A stretch of DNA of 36,387 nucleotides, taken from NCBI GenBank assembly GCA_002686855.1, contig NYYQ01000012.1, forward strand, positions 1 through 36,387, given 5' to 3'. Positions 1 through 23,950 of this stretch are shown one piece after another (position 1 is the stretch's first letter; each line of letters opens with the position of its first letter). The notes beneath the pieces were generated by a model. The model was not told the DNA's origin, ran no database searches, and saw only the letters and a program-made list of their open reading frames with translations. The stretch comes from Candidatus Woesearchaeota archaeon. Its GTDB lineage: Archaea > Nanobdellota > Nanobdellia > Woesearchaeales > GW2011-AR4. Made by a program: the position numbers and the translations under genes.

Positions 1-78
1 AAAAATAAAAAAGACCTTACAAAAGTAACTGAATTGTTAAAAAAGCTAAAAATTGAGTTTGAGTTGGTCAGGAAGTAA
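1..78 (+). CDS. 3' end of a CDS entering from the left edge (…KDLTKVTELLKKLKIEFELVRK*)
   Basis: Open frame from base 1 to TAA at 76-78 with genome-typical codon usage; converges on serA. Confidence 0.5.
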   Translation, partial: KNKKDLTKVTELLKKLKIEFELVRK

Positions 79-163
79 GATATTTATTCAACACCGCATA
101 AATCCTCGTATTTAAACTTTGTTATTATTCTATAATAGTTACAAATAACAAAATAAATTAAGG

Positions 164-1357
164 TTAAATTAATTTCCTTACTCTTAAAATACCTTCAATA
201 CTTTTAATTTTCTCTAAAGCTTTCTCTGTTATATCTCCATTAACGTCTACTATATTATAAGCTATACCTCCTTTGCTCTTGTTAAGCATCTCTTCAATGT
301 TAAGCTTTTCCTCTGCAAGCACAGCTGTAATTTTCTCAATCATTGCAGGGATATTTTTATTAATAATAGACAACCTTGCAGATCCATTCCTCCCCAGATT
401 ACATTCTGGAAAATTTACAGAACTGGTTATATTTCCATTCTCCAAATAATCTATTATCTGCTCAGAAACCATAATTGCGCAGTTTTCTTCAGCTTCTTTA
501 GTTGATGCTCCCAGGTGAGGAACTAAAATAACATTCTCAACTCCATGAAGTTTTTCACTGGGGAAATCAGTTATATACTTCCCAACAATACCTTTATCCA
601 GTGCTTCTTTTAAATCATCTTCATTAACAATTGGTCCTCTGGAAAAGTTCATTATTTTCACTCCTTGCTTTACTTTACTAAGAGTTTTCTTATTAAAAAG
701 ACCTTTTGTAGCATCGACCAATGGAACATTAACAGAAATATAATCTGATTTTTCAAGTAATTTGTTAAGGTCTGTTGCTTTCTTAACAGCAACTGATAAC
801 TTCCAGGCATTATCTACTGAAATATGAGGGTCATAACCAATAACTTCCATTCCTAATGCTGAAGCATCGTTAGCTATTAACATCCCAATAGCTCCTAATC
901 CTATAACTCCAAGTGTTTTTCCTTTAATCTCATTGCCCTTAAATCTTGATTTGTTTTTCTCAACTAAGTTTGCTAGTTCTTCATTAACCTCTTGTTTATC
1001 AGTCCAGTTAATTCCATCGACAATTCCTCTTGAAGATAGTAATAAGCTGCATAAAACTAATTCCTTCACAGCATTGGCATTTGCCCCGGGAGTATTAAAC
1101 ACAACAACACCCTTCCCTGTGCATTTATCAATGGGTATGTTATTTACACCGGCGCCTGCCCTGCCTATAGCCTTAACTGAGTCACTAAATTCCAGCTCAT
1201 GCAGATTATAGCTCCTAACGACTATTGCATCTGCATCCTTGCTAATCTCATTGCACTCCGCAATATCTATCCCTGGCTTTTGCTCCAAGCTGAATTTTGC
1301 TTCTTTGAATATTTTAGCCGCAACTTCACTGACTTTATCAGGTATTGTAATTTTCAT
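164..1357 (-). CDS. serA: D-3-phosphoglycerate dehydrogenase with C-terminal ACT domain
   Basis: GRAGAGVNNI, FNTPGANANAVKEL, Rossmann GVIGLGAIG, catalytic NFSRG and PHLGAST motifs, ACT-like tail (NKNIPAMIEKIT…NIEEMLNKSKG). ATG at 1357 preferred over the TTG at 1369. Confidence 0.92.
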   Translation of the reverse strand: MKITIPDKVSEVAAKIFKEAKFSLEQKPGIDIAECNEISKDADAIVVRSYNLHELEFSDSVKAIGRAGAGVNNIPIDKCTGKGVVVFNTPGANANAVKELVLCSLLLSSRGIVDGINWTDKQEVNEELANLVEKNKSRFKGNEIKGKTLGVIGLGAIGMLIANDASALGMEVIGYDPHISVDNAWKLSVAVKKATDLNKLLEKSDYISVNVPLVDATKGLFNKKTLSKVKQGVKIMNFSRGPIVNEDDLKEALDKGIVGKYITDFPSEKLHGVENVILVPHLGASTKEAEENCAIMVSEQIIDYLENGNITSSVNFPECNLGRNGSARLSIINKNIPAMIEKITAVLAEEKLNIEEMLNKSKGGIAYNIVDVNGDITEKALEKIKSIEGILRVRKLI

Positions 1358-7539: not shown

Positions 7540-7788
7540 GTGACTACGATCCTAGAAATGGAGGTATTTCTCTATATCCACGGAGATGGTAAAGACCAAG
7601 AAGTATACATTGTAAGGCCAAATGAATTAACATTAGTCCCATCTTATCTTAAGATATCAGAATTATTGCCAAAAGCAGATAGAAGATCAAGACTAGTCAT
7701 AGTAGAATCCAAAAATAGGATAAAAAGATTAAGAAAAGAAATTATTGCAGAAGGGATGATTCCTGTTCGAATGCAGCCCCTTAGTTAA
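7540..7788 (+). CDS. Hypothetical protein or gene fragment
   Basis: 82-aa GTG-start ORF with no motif. Confidence 0.35.
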   Translation: MTTILEMEVFLYIHGDGKDQEVYIVRPNELTLVPSYLKISELLPKADRRSRLVIVESKNRIKRLRKEIIAEGMIPVRMQPLS

Positions 7789-7839
7789 ATTTATTCTTCA
7801 ACCCAAACAAATAAATACTAAAAAAATAAACTATTTCTT

Positions 7840-9048
7840 ATGCACCCCTTCACAATAAAATACCAGCCAAAAACAACAAATGAAATCATAGGCCAAGACC
7901 TAGCAATAAAAAAACTAAAAGACTTTGTTATTAATTTTAAAAAACAAAAAAAGAATGCGGTCTTATTGTACGGTCCCCCAGGAACTGGAAAAACAATAAG
8001 TGCTTATGTAATTGCAAATGAGCTTGATCTTGAAATTCTTGAAATGAATGCCTCGGATATACGTAATGCAAACCAAATTAATTCTTTATTAGGTTCTGCT
8101 ATTTCTCAAATGAGCTTATTCTCAAAAGGAAAACTGATTTTAGTTGATGAAATAGACGGCCTCTCAGGAACAAAAGATCGGGGAGGATTGCTGGCAATAA
8201 CTAAATTAATAGAAAAAACATCATTTCCAATTATTTTAACCATACAAAATCCATGGGATTACAAGTTCAACAAATTAAAAAGAAAAACAGAGATGATTGA
8301 GTTTTCTCCCTTGGATTACCTGCCTATTTTTGAAATCTTAAAAAAAATATGTGATAAAGAAAAGATAATGTATGAGGAAAATGTGTTAAAAGGACTGGCA
8401 AGAAGGGCTGGAAATGATGCAAGATCAGCGATAAATGATCTACAAACTTTAACGATAGAAGCCAAAGAATTAACAAAGAAAAGCTTGGAAGATTTAGGAG
8501 AAAGAAACAAGCTTGAGAGCATGCCTACTGCATTGACAAAAATCTTTAAGACAACAGATCCAAAAATCGCAATAACTGCTTTTGATACTGTGAATGAGGA
8601 TCTTAATGAGCAGTTGTTATGGATAGATGAAAATCTGCCAAAAGAATATACAAAACCAGAAGATTTGGCAAAAGCATACGACAAGTTAAGCAAAGCAGAT
8701 GTCTTCAACAGAAGAATAAGGAGATGGCAGCATTGGAGATTTTTAATTTATATCAACGCTCTAATCACAGCAGGAATTGCAGTCTCAAAAGAGGAGCGCT
8801 ACAAGCACTTTGTCCAGTACAAGCCAACTGGAAGATTATTAAAATTATGGTGGGCAAAGCAAAAATCAATGAAAAAGAAAGCAATTGCCCAAAAACTTGC
8901 AGAAAAAACACACAGTTCAATAAAAGAAACATTAAAAGATACATTACCTTACTTACAAGCTACATTTAAAAAAAACAAAGATTTTAGGGAAAAACTAACA
9001 GAAGAATTGGATTTAAGCAGGGAAGAGGTTATGTGGTTGAGGAAATAA
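7840..9048 (+). CDS. rfcL: Replication factor C large subunit
   Basis: KYQPKT, Walker A GPPGTGKT, EMNASD, Walker B LVDEIDG, DARSAINDLQ, WIDENLP, LSKADVF. Confidence 0.93.
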   Translation: MHPFTIKYQPKTTNEIIGQDLAIKKLKDFVINFKKQKKNAVLLYGPPGTGKTISAYVIANELDLEILEMNASDIRNANQINSLLGSAISQMSLFSKGKLILVDEIDGLSGTKDRGGLLAITKLIEKTSFPIILTIQNPWDYKFNKLKRKTEMIEFSPLDYLPIFEILKKICDKEKIMYEENVLKGLARRAGNDARSAINDLQTLTIEAKELTKKSLEDLGERNKLESMPTALTKIFKTTDPKIAITAFDTVNEDLNEQLLWIDENLPKEYTKPEDLAKAYDKLSKADVFNRRIRRWQHWRFLIYINALITAGIAVSKEERYKHFVQYKPTGRLLKLWWAKQKSMKKKAIAQKLAEKTHSSIKETLKDTLPYLQATFKKNKDFREKLTEELDLSREEVMWLRK

Positions 9049-13891: not shown

Positions 13892-16183
13892 TTATTTCAT
13901 ATTCATTTTTTTAACACTTCTTTTAAGCCATTCATTCCAGTCAAAAAATATCCTCTTGCTGTCTAAGCTGCCAACTTCATCTTTTACCACATCTGAAATT
14001 TTATGGAATTCGTCATTTGCATTAACAACAAATTCAGCTTCTAATAAATTCAGCATTTTAGATTTTTCAGCGTATTTTACTAAAGTTTCTTTTATTTTTG
14101 TTCTCAACAAAATATTGTCCCAAATAGCATCCCAGCTTCCAGCCCATTCCTTTACATTTCCCCCAATACTCTTCAGAATATCGCTTTCTCCATTAATCAA
14201 CTCATCACTCGGCTCTAATTGGTCTGTTCTAGTATCATATTTCATTAAATCCACAAAACCAGTCTCCAGTAAAGGGTCATTTTCCCAATGCTTCCTTACC
14301 TCTGTAATCTGAGTCACTCTTCTCCATCTATGAAGACCATCTGCGCTTCTTACCGGATTAGCAACAATGATAATATCTGTTGCCTTAAAACTTGTTCTTG
14401 GTACCTGTAAATCATTAACAACTCTGTCAAAAACACCATAAGGACTGTCACCATGAATTGTCCCGGCAACAACATTTGCCAATGCGCCTATCCTCATTGC
14501 TTCATACAATGCCAATGCCTCCTTTGAACGTATTTCCCCTACAATTAAAGCTGAATCTCCCATCCTTAATGTTGTTCTTATCCCTTCATCAGCAGGCACC
14601 TCCGCGCTTCCTTTTGTTAAAGCAGCAGCAACTTTCATAGGCTGTATATTATACCCTAACTTTCTCAAAGAAGATGTTGGCAGCTCTAAAGTGTCTTCAA
14701 TAGTAATAACTCTATATCTTCTCATTAATTCCACTAATAATGCTCCCAACAATGATGTTTTTCCAGCTGACCTTGTTCCTGCTACAAGCAAAGTCCTGCT
14801 GCCATCAATAATAAAACTCATTATTCCCGCAGATAAAGGACTCATCATTTTATTATGGATAAATAAAGGCAAAGTCCATGGTTTGTCTCTATGCCTTCTA
14901 AATGCAAATGAGACGCCATGAGGGTTTAATGGCTCTCCAACTGCTGCAACACGCGCATTCGCCCCTTTAATTCTAAGCTCTGTATCCAGGATAGGATTAG
15001 CCTCATCAAGAGGCCTGCCGGATATCAACCTTAATTTTGTTGCCCACGAGTCTGCTTCAGTTGGTGTTGGAACTACATTTGTCCTGCAATCCCCATAAGT
15101 TTGATGTACAATGAACATAGGCACGTCTCCCATCTGGTTATTTATTGATATATCTTGTACCTGCTCGTCCTGCAGCAAAATCTCTATTAACCCAAAACCT
15201 ACTGTGTACCTGACCAAAATATTTGTCAACTGCTCGATTTCTTGAGAAGTCATTTTTATGTTTCTATAGCCTACAAGTTCCTCAATTAAATCCTGGCCTA
15301 CATTAAAAAAAACCTGCCTCATACGGTCCGGCTCAACAAACTCGCTTCTTTTTGGCTTGTGTTCTGCCATGATTTTCCTTGCTGTGTCTAATATTTCATA
15401 TTTTTCCTCGGTTAATTTAAATTCCGGTGGCACCATATGATACAGGTATTGCACAGTGTCTGGCAGCTCAAAAATTGTTACATCTACATCCTTCCCCACA
15501 GTATAAGTCTCCAGTTCTTTAGCATCATGAGGGAAAGCAGCCATTAGTTTTGTAAACATAAAGTCCGGCCTTACAACTGGTATAAAAAAGCGCCTGTATA
15601 TTTCCCGGTCACTAACTTTATGGCCTGCAAGATATTGCTTTGCAGCTAAGATTAATTTTGTTTTTTCCAGGGTATTCATCAAATAATCAAGAATCTTGAG
15701 ATACTTCTGACTGCATTTTATGAAGTTTTCATCAGCCGCTCTTTCCACACTTATTCTTTCATCCCTTGTAATCCTTGTCAATTCCACGTAAGCTCCGATA
15801 GGGTCTGACCTTAACAAATTTGATATTATGTTCTGTACAGTAGAATACCAAGTATTAGCCCACTTTGCGCAGCTGGTGTCAGAAAGCAAAGCAGTATAAC
15901 TAAAAACATCTTTTCTTTTAGCAAGCTGGGAATATAGTTTTGCTATTTCTCTCAACAAAAATGTCTGATTAGAATCATATTCATAATTTCTCTTTTGCAT
16001 AAAGACAATTTTGGTTGCATCCCCCACCTCAATAAGCATATCGCATGTCTTTGACATAATCATTGCATCATCTTCTATAGCAGGTATATGCTGATAGTCC
16101 TCTAAATCAACAGAAAGTATTACATCATCCCCTTCCCTTATCACATCATAAGAAAAGGGCTTTTTATTATCAAACAATGCCAT
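13892..16183 (-). CDS. Type II/IV secretion ATPase (TadA/CpaF/ArlI-like) with long N-terminal extension
   Basis: LLQDEQVQDISIN, SGRPLDEANPILD, Walker A AGTRSAGKT, ITIEDTLEL, Walker B LIVGEIR, His box GTIHG. ATG at 16183. Confidence 0.9.
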   Translation of the reverse strand: MALFDNKKPFSYDVIREGDDVILSVDLEDYQHIPAIEDDAMIMSKTCDMLIEVGDATKIVFMQKRNYEYDSNQTFLLREIAKLYSQLAKRKDVFSYTALLSDTSCAKWANTWYSTVQNIISNLLRSDPIGAYVELTRITRDERISVERAADENFIKCSQKYLKILDYLMNTLEKTKLILAAKQYLAGHKVSDREIYRRFFIPVVRPDFMFTKLMAAFPHDAKELETYTVGKDVDVTIFELPDTVQYLYHMVPPEFKLTEEKYEILDTARKIMAEHKPKRSEFVEPDRMRQVFFNVGQDLIEELVGYRNIKMTSQEIEQLTNILVRYTVGFGLIEILLQDEQVQDISINNQMGDVPMFIVHQTYGDCRTNVVPTPTEADSWATKLRLISGRPLDEANPILDTELRIKGANARVAAVGEPLNPHGVSFAFRRHRDKPWTLPLFIHNKMMSPLSAGIMSFIIDGSRTLLVAGTRSAGKTSLLGALLVELMRRYRVITIEDTLELPTSSLRKLGYNIQPMKVAAALTKGSAEVPADEGIRTTLRMGDSALIVGEIRSKEALALYEAMRIGALANVVAGTIHGDSPYGVFDRVVNDLQVPRTSFKATDIIIVANPVRSADGLHRWRRVTQITEVRKHWENDPLLETGFVDLMKYDTRTDQLEPSDELINGESDILKSIGGNVKEWAGSWDAIWDNILLRTKIKETLVKYAEKSKMLNLLEAEFVVNANDEFHKISDVVKDEVGSLDSKRIFFDWNEWLKRSVKKMNMK

Positions 16184-16527: not shown

Positions 16528-16665
16528 TTATTTCTGATTTTTTAACAAATCCAGTGCAATCTCAATCAAATGTGATTTATTCCTGTACTTTTTCCTATCC
16601 TGCAATGCTTTATCTATCCACTTTATTAGTTCCAGATCAATTGTTGCACTTATCGACTTTTTCAT
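16528..16665 (-). CDS. Ribbon-helix-helix (CopG/MetJ-like) DNA-binding protein, 45 aa, not in the ORF track
   Basis: Manual translation MKKSISATIDLELIKWIDKALQDRKKYRNKSHLIEIALDLLKNQK: alternating beta-strand (SISATID), helix, then NKSHLIEIAL, matching the RHH pattern. Confidence 0.8.
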   Translation of the reverse strand: MKKSISATIDLELIKWIDKALQDRKKYRNKSHLIEIALDLLKNQK

Positions 16666-16671
16666 GTTGAC

Positions 16672-16728
16672 TATATTATAAAATATATTTTTGCATATTT
16701 TCAAATATTATATATATTTTATAATATA
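16672..16728. promoter_or_regulatory. Perfect 17-bp inverted repeat, candidate RHH operator
   Basis: TATATTATAAAATATAT (16672-16688) and ATATATTTTATAATATA (16712-16728) with a 23-nt spacer, immediately upstream of the RHH start. It is all A/T, so chance occurrence is not excluded. Confidence 0.45.
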
Positions 16729-20152: not shown

Positions 20153-20719
20153 ATGCTAAATGCAAAAGAATTTGAAAAAATAAGGGAAGACTTAGCTGCT
20201 TTTGAAGCTAAAAGAGAGTCTGTAATACAAAAATCCAGGGAGATCATTAACTTATCTAAAAGAATAATTTATGCCTTGCATAGAAATGATGTAAAGACTG
20301 CTTCTTCTCTTGTAAAGGATATTGAAAAGGGGAAAAAAACCCTTACAAATGTAAGAATGGATACAAACATAAATATTGTTGCCTTGCAGGAATATGCTGA
20401 AGCCCTATGCTATTATCACTTTGTCAAAAACAAAAAAATACCAACTGCAACATCATTAAAAATTGGCAATGAAAGCTATTTGCTTGGTTTATGTGATTTA
20501 ACCGGGGAACTAGTAAGAAAAGCAGTAAATGACGTTATAAATAAAAATTTTAAAGCCGCCTTTGAAATCAAAAATCTTGTTGAGGAGATATATGGTGAAT
20601 TTCTAAAATTTAATCTAAGAAACTCTGAATTAAGAAAGAAATCAGACCAGATAAAATGGAATTTGAAGAAACTAGAAGATGTTGTTTTTGAACTAAAGCT
20701 GAAAGGTAAATTAAAATGA
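20153..20719 (+). CDS. Translin/Trax (archaeal C3PO) family RNA-binding endoribonuclease
   Basis: RESVIQKSREIINLSKRIIYALHR, ALQEYAEA, YLLGLCDLTGELVRKA, LRKKSD signatures. Confidence 0.88.
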   Translation: MLNAKEFEKIREDLAAFEAKRESVIQKSREIINLSKRIIYALHRNDVKTASSLVKDIEKGKKTLTNVRMDTNINIVALQEYAEALCYYHFVKNKKIPTATSLKIGNESYLLGLCDLTGELVRKAVNDVINKNFKAAFEIKNLVEEIYGEFLKFNLRNSELRKKSDQIKWNLKKLEDVVFELKLKGKLK

Positions 20720-22461
20720 GGACGCATACTTGTGGAGAATTAACAAAAAAAGATATAAAAAAAACTGTTTCTTTATCGGGTTGGGTTCAAAGCAGTAGAG
20801 ATCATGGGGGCATTATTTTCATTGACTTAAGGGACAGGTATGGCCTTACCCAGATAGTTTTTGACCCAAAACACAACAAAAAAAATCATGCAGAAGCTGA
20901 AAAACTAAGAAGGGAAGATGTTATTGCAGTAAAAGGCAAAGTAAGGCATAGAGGCAAAGGTCTTGAAAACCCCAATCTTAAAACAGGAGAAATAGAAATC
21001 CTTGTTGATGAATTAGAAGTATTAAGTAAAGCAGATACACCTCCCATTGAGGTAGAAAATAGAATTGATGCAAATGAAGACATAAGGTTAAAATATAGGT
21101 TTTTAGATTTAAGAAGGCCAAAGATGCAGAAACATTTGCTAGTTAGGCATCAGGCTGCTCAGGCTGCTCGTGCTTATTTGGATAAAAATAATTTTCTTGA
21201 GATTGAAACACCGATGCTTGTTAAGGCAACTCCAGAAGGCGCTAGAGATTATATTGTCCCATCACGTACAAATCCCGGCAAATGGTTTGCATTGCCTCAA
21301 AGCCCCCAATTATACAAGCAAATTTTAATGGTTTCTGGTTTTGACCGTTATTACCAGCTAGCCAGATGCTTGAGGGATGAGGATTTAAGGCAAGATAGGC
21401 AGCCAGAACATACTCAGATTGATCTAGAGATGAGTTTTGTTGAGCAGGAAGATGTCTTAAACATGGTTGAAGGGCTTTATAAGCACATGATGAAATCTGT
21501 TCTTGAAATTGATATTAAAGAAAAGTTTCCCAGAATGTCTTATGCAGAAGCAATAGATAGGTTTGGAACAGACAAGCCAGATTTAAGATTTAAGCTTGAA
21601 TTAATTGACGTAACAGATATTGTAAAAGATTCTGATTTTGAAGTCTTTAAGAAAACTGAACAGGTTAAATGCCTTGCTCCTGAAAAAGATTTTTCCAGAA
21701 AAGAACTTGACGAATATATAAATTTCTGCCAGCAGAATGGTGCAAAGGGAATGGCATGGATGCGTGTTACAAAAAAAGGCCTTGAAAGCAATATTGTAAA
21801 ATTCTTTAATCCTTCTATTCAAAAAAAATTATTGCAAAAAACAAAAGCAAAGAAAGGTGTCTTAATGTTTATTGCCGATAAGCCAGAAGCTGTTGCTGAA
21901 ATATTAGGCAAATTAAGATTAAAATTAAGTGAAGATTTGAAATTGACCAATAAAAAAGATTTCGAGTTCTGCTGGGTTTTGGATTTTCCTTTATTTGAAT
22001 GGGATGATGAAAACAGTAAATGGATGCCTTGCCACCACATCTTCACAGCTCCGAATAAAGAACACTTGAAGTTTTTGGAGAAAAACCCGGAAAAAGTTCA
22101 TGCAAACTTATATGATTTAGTCTTAAATGGTGTTGAATTAGGCTCTGGCTCAATAAGGGAAACTAATCCTGAAATTCAAAAGAAACTTTTTAAGATGATT
22201 GGCTTAAGTGATAAGGAAGCCCAAAGAAAATTTGGTTTCTTAATGGATGCTTTCAAATACGGAACTCCGCCGCATGGAGGTATTGGACTTGGCTTTGATA
22301 GAATAGTGGCCTTAATGTGCAACCATCATGACATTAGGGAAGTCATAGCCTTCCCAAAAAACAAAAACGCAGAATGCCCAATGGATGGAAGCCCTTCAGA
22401 TGTACCAGACAACCAACTCAAAGAACTTCATGTTAAAAGTGATTTGGTTAAGAAGCAGTAA
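20716..22461 (+). CDS. aspS: Aspartyl-tRNA synthetase, bacterial type with GAD insertion (probably non-discriminating)
   Basis: 581 aa; MRTHTCGEL, RDHGGIIFIDLRD, TPEGARDY, LPQSPQLYKQILM, RDEDLRQDRQPE, GTDKPDLRF, YGTPPHGGIGLGFDR. Confidence 0.95.
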   Translation: MRTHTCGELTKKDIKKTVSLSGWVQSSRDHGGIIFIDLRDRYGLTQIVFDPKHNKKNHAEAEKLRREDVIAVKGKVRHRGKGLENPNLKTGEIEILVDELEVLSKADTPPIEVENRIDANEDIRLKYRFLDLRRPKMQKHLLVRHQAAQAARAYLDKNNFLEIETPMLVKATPEGARDYIVPSRTNPGKWFALPQSPQLYKQILMVSGFDRYYQLARCLRDEDLRQDRQPEHTQIDLEMSFVEQEDVLNMVEGLYKHMMKSVLEIDIKEKFPRMSYAEAIDRFGTDKPDLRFKLELIDVTDIVKDSDFEVFKKTEQVKCLAPEKDFSRKELDEYINFCQQNGAKGMAWMRVTKKGLESNIVKFFNPSIQKKLLQKTKAKKGVLMFIADKPEAVAEILGKLRLKLSEDLKLTNKKDFEFCWVLDFPLFEWDDENSKWMPCHHIFTAPNKEHLKFLEKNPEKVHANLYDLVLNGVELGSGSIRETNPEIQKKLFKMIGLSDKEAQRKFGFLMDAFKYGTPPHGGIGLGFDRIVALMCNHHDIREVIAFPKNKNAECPMDGSPSDVPDNQLKELHVKSDLVKKQ

Positions 22462-22481
22462 TTTAGTTCTTTCTTTTTGAA

Positions 22482-23354
22482 AAAGTTCGTATAACTCACC
22501 TTTCACTCACAAATAGTTCGCAAAAAGTGTGTTACATGTTCGTGAGTGTCGCTTCTACATTATTATTTTACGTGTGTGCAGAATGTAATAACACAGCCAA
22601 TGAATTAGTTAGGACTATTTTAATAAAAAAAGTAAATAATACACCCCATCTTTATATAGAAAATTTTATTTTTAACAATCTAGAAATAAATAATCATCTG
22701 GTTTTTTAGTAGTTTTTATAAAGTTTCAATACTAAAGGCTCTATAGAATGGATTTCAAATGGAAGATTATATTTATTATATCTGTATTAATTATTTTATT
22801 TACCTTATCGGTCCCTTTTAATAGATGTGAAATCACTACAGAATACTATGGAATAGATTACCAGATAGGTAAACATAATGAGACTTTACCCTTATTTGTT
22901 GTATTGATGGAAAATTCAACACTATTCCCATGTAAAATAAATAGTGTTAGTATAAGCTAATGTAAAATAAAAAAGCACTAGTTTACTTGCTCTTTATTCT
23001 TCACACACGTCGATTTATCTCTCTCGCTTAATGTATGTACATTAAACGTAAACTTCGCGGATCTTTTCATTTCTAAAAAGACAAAACAATTCTAAAATAA
23101 TATAAGAACTAAATCCGAATTTCCATCAAAGAAAATTCGGGCGACACTCACAACTAAATCCTCACGAATTCGGACATCAAAATCCTCATTCGTTGCGGCT
23201 TAGCTCATGTAACACATCTTAAATGATTCACTCACTCAGCCATCAAAGGCTTCGTTCGCTCAACTAACTTTTTTCTCCGAAAAAAGTCTCGTCAGTCGGG
23301 TTGCCATACTGACGAGCCTATCGGTCATTTAAGAAAGTCCGTTACACGAACTTT
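22482..23354. mobile_element. ~870-bp element bounded by nested long-range inverted repeats, enclosing a small ORF
   Basis: Five collinear IR pairs of 8-15 bp between 22482-22584 and 22996-23354, plus a multi-hairpin right arm. Mobility is inferred, not shown. Confidence 0.5.
22748..22960 (+). CDS. Small protein with N-terminal signal/anchor helix (cargo of the fold-back element)
   Basis: 70 aa; MDFKWK followed by a hydrophobic stretch; two Cys; TATA-like TTTATAAA at about 22715. Confidence 0.55.
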   Translation: MDFKWKIIFIISVLIILFTLSVPFNRCEITTEYYGIDYQIGKHNETLPLFVVLMENSTLFPCKINSVSIS

Positions 23355-23401
23355 ACTGTTTGTCCTTAAATTTATATACTAACTAATAATTCCCTATTCC
23401 C

Positions 23402-23950
23402 ATGCAAATAAACCTAATAACATCAAACTTAAGCAAAGTAAAAGAATTCAAAGCAATACTGGGAGATAAAGTTCAAATTAACCACCTCAATATTGAATAT
23501 AAAGAACTAAGAAGCAATAACCCTGAAGAGATAGCAAAAGAATCAGCTAAAAGGCTTGCAGATGAATTAAACAAGACAGTAGTAGTTGAAGACTCTGGTT
23601 TGTTCATAAAAGCATTAAATGATTTTCCAGGAACCTGCTCAGCATATATCCATAAAAGAATAGGATTAAAAGGAATTTTAAAGCTGATGGAAAACATTGA
23701 AGATAGAACTTGCTTTTACAAATCAGCAGTTGCTTACTGCGAACCAAATAAACAACCAATTTCTTTCCTAGGTGAAGAAAAGGGAACTATAGCATTAGAA
23801 GAAAAAGGAGCCCATGGCTTTGGTCATGATACTATTTTTATTCCAGAAAGCAGCAATAAAACCTATGGAGAAATAGAAAAATGCGAAACTATTAAAAGAT
23901 TCAGAAAAATCGCGATTGAGAAACTGAAAGACTGCCTGGAGGAACAATAA
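23402..23950 (+). CDS. Non-canonical purine NTP pyrophosphatase (Ham1/RdgB/ITPase family)
   Basis: ITSNLSKVKE, VVVEDSGLFIKALNDFPG, GFGHDTIFIP. Confidence 0.88.
   Translation: MQINLITSNLSKVKEFKAILGDKVQINHLNIEYKELRSNNPEEIAKESAKRLADELNKTVVVEDSGLFIKALNDFPGTCSAYIHKRIGLKGILKLMENIEDRTCFYKSAVAYCEPNKQPISFLGEEKGTIALEEKGAHGFGHDTIFIPESSNKTYGEIEKCETIKRFRKIAIEKLKDCLEEQ

Follow-up and report, generated by a model that had tools for sequence, protein, structure and literature searches.

What are two long, complementary arms doing around a single small open reading frame (ORF), between two housekeeping genes of an archaeon? The question is raised by a contig (NYYQ01000012.1 of GenBank assembly GCA_002686855.1) of a Candidatus Woesearchaeota archaeon, whose 36,387 nucleotides, analysed at full length, are hereafter called the window; the genome to which it belongs (G000) comprises 1.26 Mb in 78 contigs and is 79% complete. 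An original prediction, made from the letters alone, described positions 22482-23354 as a giant nested fold-back that holds a small gene in its loop and has ends like the attC sites of integrons. Our analyses lead to another identification: positions 22481-23355 would be one integrated copy of a family of recombinase-less cassettes bounded by sites of the XerA/dif type, with a dependence on XerA that we infer, and we put the probability of this reading at roughly 0.65. The cassette is probably moved by the housekeeping recombinase XerA, not by an integron.

Complementarity of the arms

The five collinear nested inverted matches from which the original prediction started all stand where it had placed them. 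The inverted-repeat listing puts the outer pair at 22482-22502/23334-23354; further inwards, 22528 matches 23206 (11/11), 22542 matches 23141 (11/11) and 22570 matches 22996 (14/15), with CTCACGAA, read at 23161, as the partner segment of one of the matches. A pairing not listed before joins TATTATTTTA (22561) to TAAAATAATA (23093), and the right arm also holds at least four local hairpins. When the left arm (22482-22584) was cofolded with the right (22996-23354), the interaction energy was -38.3 kcal/mol; 100 versions of the left arm with shuffled dinucleotides gave -8.8 ± 3.3 kcal/mol (z -8.8), the best of them reaching -19.1, and the minus strand gave -40.2 kcal/mol vs -11.6 ± 3.6 in shuffles. 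Shuffled controls are thus much weaker than the arms themselves, and energies so far below theirs indicate that the nested complementarity is real.

Common arms, different cargo

The arms are multi-copy, recurring both in the same genome and across the family, and the suggestion that the same arms might enclose different cargo is borne out by seven complete open copies, in which 0.4-5.4 kb of cargo lies between a left arm of ~100 nt and a right arm of ~360 nt. These copies come from six genomes and carry seven different cargoes; they comprise the copy in the window, a second one on contig C26 of the same genome, and those of genomes G013, G003, G048, G058 and G066. Within the genome of the window, arm copies were found on contigs C26, C25, C1, C35, C18 and C14: the right arm is ~90% identical to C26:2241-1800, the inner left arm is 89-94% identical to C26:5457-5407 and C25:7197-7249, and the outer left arm matches C1:41-96 and C35:12343-12421.

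In the window, the cargo is an AT-rich stretch of 411 nt (22585-22995) with one orphan ORF, and unrelated cargo occupies this position in the other copies. The C26 copy carries ~3.1 kb with an 816-aa Cys-rich secreted protein and, on the opposite strand, a 167-aa lipoprotein-like ORF; the G013 copy 1.0 kb with a secreted orphan; the G003 copy 2.75 kb with a membrane protein, an HNH protein and an NTase-HEPN pair; the G048 copy 5.4 kb with GmrSD, HEPN, Vsr, HD, C5-methylase and NgoPII proteins; the G058 copy 4.6 kb with a methylase, Vsr and orphans; and the G066 copy 3.6 kb with an alpha/beta hydrolase and others. Cargo genes lie on either strand, varying between copies, and because their orientation differs in this way the idea of a panhandle in untranslated regions was rejected. 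None of the 20 cargo proteins scanned belongs to a recombinase, transposase or Rep/replication family. The general idea of a gene-capture or mobile unit mobilised in trans holds, whereas the integron/attC form that the original prediction gave to it is not upheld.

The small ORF that had been placed in the loop does lie inside the arms, at 22748-22960 on the plus strand, and encodes 70 aa with a hydrophobic N-terminus; it had no Pfam match and a search of a protein collection returned a single cluster, the ORF itself, so that its coding status is unproven. Upstream of it, the AT-rich stretch 22582-22707 is 77% identical to intergenic sequence at C23:10919-10797 of the same genome and may represent a shared promoter or leader, or a further small repeat.

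A query with the right arm of the G013 copy matched 31 of 70 family genomes (E<=1e-5), many of the matches lying at contig ends and several genomes holding a few copies each. The right arm of the window copy matched 4 of 24 other family genomes (5 of 41 genomes when that of the window is counted) and, among other families of the order, none of the 16 genomes searched. The carrier family is best described as Woesearchaeota-type DPANN archaea, with matches across genera. In four runs, contigs covered the arms 3-5 times as deeply as the flanks, and the contig graphs of these runs branch at 22531-22534, 22580-22583 and 23354; the element is a cause of assembly breaks in metagenome-assembled genomes. 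A pattern scan of genome contigs gave at least 117 matches, mostly chance ones in bacteria, from which six Woesearchaeota/Nanoarchaeota loci were taken further, and two pattern scans of IMG/VR gave 13 loci, none of them truly similar to the arms. The degenerate box TTCNNNTAAC/GTTANNNGAA, with 297 occurrences vs ~301 expected, was uninformative.

Ends of the dif type and the host recombinase

Archaeal dif, according to excerpts of PMC2958812, consists of 11-bp inverted arms around a 6-bp spacer and is recombined by XerA without FtsK. The sole PF00589 match in the genome of the window, at C18:15039-15848, is assigned to XerA by NF040815 with 252 bits (cut-off 220); against the integron integrase model TIGR02249, the same protein reached 220 bits in two stretches, with a cut-off of 265. 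Integron integrases are marked by an additional domain around patch III. PF00589 was matched in all five element-bearing genomes tested.

A palindromic 14-6-14 site, AAAAGTTCGYATAA-N6-TTAYRCGAACTTTT, was located by script ~30-75 nt upstream of xerA at 13 of 30 family loci; extra xerA-linked dif-like sites include one found by regular expression and two lying ~360-390 nt upstream, and two xerA-linked sites are cut by the contig end exactly after the centre plus TTA. At loci L215 and L235, the xerA-proximal dif arm and centre run into the reverse-complemented 3' domain of the right arm, and since this domain abuts the dif arm, an element sits in dif there. On C18 of the window's own genome, two right-arm 3' domains with arms lie beside xerA/dif and flank cargo genes on either side.

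A position weight matrix (PWM) for the half-site was built from the xerA-proximal dif sites and run over 22300-23500, where only two positions reached 9 bits: 22481 on the plus strand (21.0) and 23342 on the minus strand (13.7). These are the outer pair of the original prediction. The left one, AAAAGTTCGTATAA (22481-22494; this and the other element features below are given on the plus strand), is a canonical dif-type left arm and the outer left end of the element; it has the top score in the 1.26-Mb genome, and the dif sites upstream of xerA in L217 and L233 have exactly this sequence as their left arm. The outer TAAC/GTTA sequences that had been likened to the R''/R' boxes of attC are instead the inner ends of dif-type 11-6-11 arms.

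Three side observations concern the xerA locus. In many family genomes the dif-like site overlaps the TATA region of xerA (C18:15877-15910 in the genome of the window, which is L201:3878-3911; 30 loci, L209-L238), so XerA may bind its own promoter. Many contigs with xerA begin only a short distance before the gene, suggesting that the assembly breaks at dif. On C18, G+C-rich direct repeats, CTAGGCTCGC.CAAT...CTCGCAATATTGG followed by a short hairpin, occupy 15925-16000 and 16585-16690 and bracket the domain resembling the right arm beside xerA; they may constitute a further non-coding element.

Junctions and their configurations

Behind the outer left arm, a short spacer or mini-module (22495-22514), common in alignment to C1:41-110, C35 and the G013 copy, leads to an attL-like hybrid 11-6-11 site, recognised by its sequence layout as AGTTCGCAAAA / AGTGTG / TTACATGTTCG (22515-22542). 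The same layout of an arm, 6 nt (7 in C25) and TTAYATGTTCG recurs in all seven left-arm copies that carry a left half-site. At the other end, an attR-like hybrid 11-6-11 site, TCATTTAAGAA / AGTCCG / TTACACGAACT (23325-23352), coincides with the minus-strand PWM match of 13.7 bits at 23342-23355. The two hybrid sites share one direction, left arm before right arm: the left one consists of a target arm, a 6-nt centre and the element arm TTACATGTTCG, the right one of an element arm, a 6-nt centre and the target arm TTACACGAACT, and between them lie, in this order, the inner left arm, the variable cargo and the ~360-nt right arm. Preserved right-arm ends, compared by eye, mostly read TTA, 3 nt and a GAACTTT-like tail, the element-side arm being followed by 6 nt or, to a better arm, by 9 nt. 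Similarity among copies and contigs stops at 23354.

Two further arrangements accompany these. At C1:41-110, the same left half is followed immediately by a canonical right arm, which we read as an unoccupied site. In three closed copies, those of G022 and of the metagenome contigs L258 and L262, the right-arm 3' domain continues through the same TTA into the inner left arm, as would be expected of attP in a circular form. Taken together, the four junction configurations are those that recombination of attP with attB at an 11-6-11 site would be expected to leave. In copies of the G013 type, the cargo is itself bounded by further sequences resembling dif arms, suggesting that insertions were nested one inside another at the canonical second site of the module. 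A separate observation concerns the G058 copy (L253, contig C8; left arm 7184-7089, right arm 2483-2218), which is chimeric, joining a left arm of the GTTCGTGCCGC variant to a right arm of the GCGACACTCAC variant; arms are evidently exchangeable between elements.

A covarying module split by the cargo

The nested fold is best explained as the conserved secondary structure of a non-coding module of ~450 nt whose parts adjoin only when it is closed or circular. The inner left arm (22532-22584) forms the 3' strand of the long-range helix, pairing with 23206-13, 23161-68, 23141-51, 23093-102 and 22996-23010; in other copies it carries changes that compensate for those of the right arm. The proximal right arm (22996-23089), 89% identical to C26:2241-2078, begins with the innermost pairing segment (22996-23010) and contains a palindromic dif-like sequence, TCGCTTAA-TGTATGTACA-TTAAACGTAAACTT (23024-23055). 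The 5' domain delimited by alignments (23090-23215) holds the pairing segments 23141-51, 23161-68 and CATGTAAC (23206-13), as well as hairpins 1 (23115-23140) and 2 (23160-23198) with CATCAAA(G/A) loops. Hairpin 3, AGCC-ATCAAA-GGCT (23238-23251), seen in the repeat listing and in alignments, provides the third CATCAAAG loop motif. In the 3' domain (23265-23324; 31 distinct copies collected with nhmmer), nested stems carry the nearly invariant apical loop GGGTTGCC (23298-23305).

The stems of the three CATCAAA(G)-loop hairpins covary. Eleven of the 28 predicted pairs of the 5' domain show at least two Watson-Crick types among 8 copies, and 11 of 29 predicted pairs are compensatory in the longer variant of the 3' domain (16 copies). 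The long-range helix between the arms reads GTGAGTGTCGC/GCGACACTCAC in the window, C26 and G013 copies and GTTCGTGCCGC/GCGGCACGAAC in those of G003 and G066, with one mismatch in G022. Both strands fold beyond shuffles (z -2.7 to -9.5). The minimum free energy favours the minus strand (45 kcal/mol lower than the plus strand for the window copy), whereas G.T:A.C cells counted on the plus strand stand at 12:11 in the 3' domain and 20:7 in the 5' domain; since the two measures disagree, the strand of the fold cannot be called. No family of Rfam 15 was matched at the gathering score in the window, in the element (best E 7.6, at E<=10), in a closed copy (best E 0.61) or in six related loci, and the tRNA scan of the window was equally negative. 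Processing stems of rRNA had also been considered for the arms and were dropped after the scan of the six related loci. As for its role, the fold could serve as accessory architecture for Xer synapsis in the form of single-stranded DNA, or act as RNA.

The aspS-Ham1 interval

The housekeeping nature of the flanking genes is supported by profile matches: aspS, encoding aspartate-tRNA ligase, occupies 20716-22461 on the left (NF001750, 842 bits), and the gene for the Ham1/RdgB NTP pyrophosphatase 23402-23950 on the right (TIGR00042, 150.6 bits), both on the plus strand. We inspected 29 Ham1 loci of relatives, in 15 of which the end of aspS was also visible. An empty site of the kind that the original prediction proposed to look for is present in L028 and L029, where aspS and Ham1 are separated by 50 and 68 nt without arm sequence; elsewhere the gap is variable and some loci carry other inserts. 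Another copy with different cargo occupies the same interval in G003, a genome of a different genus. With multi-copy arms, empty alleles and much weaker shuffles, none of the three outcomes that would have spoken against the original prediction was obtained.

Two observations on neighbouring alleles stand apart from these. In L030 (G004:C38), a sequence resembling a dif right arm, CGAACTTTTTAC, stands in place of the last aspS codons, and after it comes an NTase-HEPN pair like the one with which the cargo of the G003 copy ends; the arrangement has the appearance of a scar that deletion or recombination left at the same hotspot. In genus g11 (L040, L041, L044-L046, L051 and L052), the aspS frame apparently runs ~150 codons further, with a domain that by eye resembles YbaK/ProX, and the 464-nt "gap" to Ham1 would be coding there.

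Weighing the explanations

Could the module be, in essence, a mobile or duplicated gene for a structured non-coding RNA of ~450 nt (a regulator, guide or scaffold), to which the dif-like arms are secondary? The strong covariation of local and long-range helices would be accounted for in this way, as would the conserved loop motifs (CATCAAAG three times, and GGGTTGCC), the folding of both strands beyond shuffles, the large preference of the window copy for the minus strand and the existence of three contiguous closed copies. Yet the G.T:A.C ratios and the minimum free energy, taken together, give no strand signal; no Rfam family appears even at E<=10; and in 7 of 10 arrangements the parts of the supposed gene stand in the wrong order, with 0.4-5.4 kb of cargo in either orientation between them, which makes an RNA gene unlikely as the explanation of the element. 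A derivative of the IS200/IS605 type, that is, a palindrome-associated transposable element with passenger genes that is moved in trans by a Y1 HUH transposase and inserts 3' of a TTAC-like word, has to be judged more sceptically still. IS608 targets TTAC, the junctions have GTTAC(A) in common, the ends are rich in hairpins, and Y1_Tnp genes were found in 4 of 5 element-bearing genomes searched, including two on C53 of the window's own genome. However, members of the IS200/IS605 family are not known to have terminal inverted repeats, whereas the ends here are inverted dif arms in 11-6-11 sites; the copies cluster at xerA/dif; the arms have no similarity to the tnpA contig C53; and G003 (83% complete), with at least four right-arm matches, has no Y1 match, all of which renders this derivation most improbable. 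The search for HUH enzymes that the original prediction recommended did find such an enzyme in the genome, but nothing ties it to the element. As an observation on C53 itself, its two IS200-type Y1 transposase genes, at 33-476 (+) and 7682-8125 (-), are near-identical, inverted and ~7 kb apart, with one copy at the contig start; by ORF starts, the interval appears to hold lysine/diaminopimelate and aspartate-kinase-like genes.

The form given to the element by the original prediction, an integron-type cassette whose giant attC, folded as single-stranded DNA, would be the substrate of an integron integrase, drew on boxes (TAAC/GTTA) resembling R''/R', and the variable cargo without a recombinase inside the cassette agrees with it. 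Known attC sites, though, are imperfect palindromes (R''-L''...L'-R') of under ~150 nt that come after the cassette, and arms of 100 + 360 nt flank the cargo here on both sides; the boxes belong to duplex-type 11-6-11 sites identical to dif arms, and the window copy is a singleton between housekeeping genes. Integrons of DPANN archaea have been reported (PMC9668308, as excerpted), but the search for an IntI-like tyrosine recombinase in this genome, at its 79% completeness, retrieved XerA alone, below the TIGR02249 cut-off. No single-orientation cassette array beside intI/attI was seen; the array-like C18 locus lies beside xerA. We consider an integron barely credible on this evidence. That the inverted matches arose by chance in AT-rich intergenic DNA, where the region does contain 66 inverted-repeat pairs, is practically negligible as an explanation in view of the shuffled controls, the copies elsewhere in the genome at 89-94% identity and the conservation of the element across genera.

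Several findings also weigh against the XerA/dif cassette itself. Single half-sites are weak evidence: at a threshold of 12 bits, the PWM gives 57 matches in the genome vs 28-55 in shuffles. The element-side arms TCATTTAAGAA and TTACATGTTCG depart from the canonical arm, and in the longer variant the good left arm lies 9 nt, not 6 nt, from TTA. The window copy is not at the xerA-linked dif, being on another contig than xerA/dif, and the short spacers of L028 and L029 show no dif-like site, which leaves the origin of the target at this spot unexplained. No excision or circle joint at the locus appears in the contigs of four runs, contigs being prone to drop rare variants. In the G058 copy, the two arms belong to different variants and 4 of 11 main-helix pairs are broken. 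Finally, a duplex Xer site needs no base-pair covariation, so that the fold is left unexplained.

A proposed route of capture

With these points taken into account, the preferred explanation of a cassette family using XerA suggests the following course. In a circular module, the attP-like core would be recombined by XerA with a target resembling dif, and integration would split the module and evert it around whatever cargo occupies its canonical second site. Where two sites are directly repeated, recombination between them would remove cargo or swap it, and nested or tandem events would build arrays. A bolder version, about which we are rather doubtful, is that DPANN archaea run a cassette capture by XerA in which the split ~450-nt module, intact only when excised or closed, acts as RNA or folded single-stranded DNA to switch re-integration, copying or transfer.

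Relation to known systems

The closest known systems are the integrative mobile elements exploiting Xer recombination (IMEX), namely CTXphi, VGJphi, TLCphi and the gonococcal genetic island (excerpted from the review PMC5357621). Like these, the cassettes lack a recombinase of their own (as judged from the 20 cargo proteins scanned) in hosts that possess Xer, and they would likewise use the chromosome-dimer recombinase at dif or dif-like sites. The flanking hybrid sites keep one canonical dif arm, next to a 6-8-bp centre and an element arm, in both cases (for the cassettes as read from the letters), and element-side arms are degenerate; some relatives of the window copy abut dif, where IMEX insertions accumulate. 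Unlike IMEX, the cassettes reside in an archaeon with a single, FtsK-independent XerA, are small (0.9-6 kb) and without phage or conjugation genes, also occur at secondary sites far from xerA/dif, and have a ~450-nt covarying structured module around their attP-like core. CTXphi has a folded single-strand attP, and this is the nearest analogy to the module, except that the cassette fold builds no continuous 28-bp duplex site.

The dif (pdif) modules of Acinetobacter are plasmid-borne and have inverted XerC/D sites as their boundaries; the cassettes differ from them in having quasi-palindromic XerA sites in direct order, on chromosomal contigs with housekeeping genes, and in the long conserved structured arms that accompany these sites. 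Both comprise accessory genes bounded by Xer sites without a recombinase, both combine the same sites with many cargoes, including toxin-antitoxin and defence-type genes in Acinetobacter, and both show shuffling, for which the chimeric G058 copy may be compared (PMC6449649, PMC13141974 and PMC12907356, in the excerpts used). Integron cassettes, including archaeal ones (PMC9668308, same excerpt), resemble the present ones in their promoter-poor, variable cargo and a tyrosine recombinase acting in trans, and attC in being partly defined by structure with a GTTA-type core; here, in contrast, no IntI was found in the 79%-complete genome, the sites are dif-type duplexes, cargo lies in either orientation, and the arms are far longer than attC and conserved in sequence. 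Suicidal integration of the SSV type, in which attP lies inside the integrase gene (PMC8371274, as excerpted), likewise splits in two a unit that is whole in the circular form, but the unit split here is a non-coding structured module and the recombinase is chromosomal.

Our literature search, which covered publications outside supplementary files, found none combining DPANN and XerA, nor any published archaeal description of such cassettes, and the excerpted text of the 2021 review of archaeal tyrosine recombinases (PMC8371274) uses neither "IMEX" nor "hijack".

Significance

Rfam does not contain the covarying 450-nt module, a concrete new non-coding element. The cassettes would extend the hijacking of Xer, so far bacterial, to archaea with a single FtsK-independent XerA, and should the doubtful, more far-reaching version with a switching module be true, they would amount to an archaeal counterpart of integrons and of the CTX-type folded attP, with a new kind of structured element coupled to recombination. 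Restriction-modification, GmrSD, HEPN/NTase and secreted orphan proteins are among the cargo of the other copies. DPANN archaea have tiny genomes in which few mobile elements can be recognised, and the routes by which they gain genes for defence and the cell surface are poorly understood; cassettes borrowing the chromosome-dimer recombinase would explain strain-variable islands at many of their loci.

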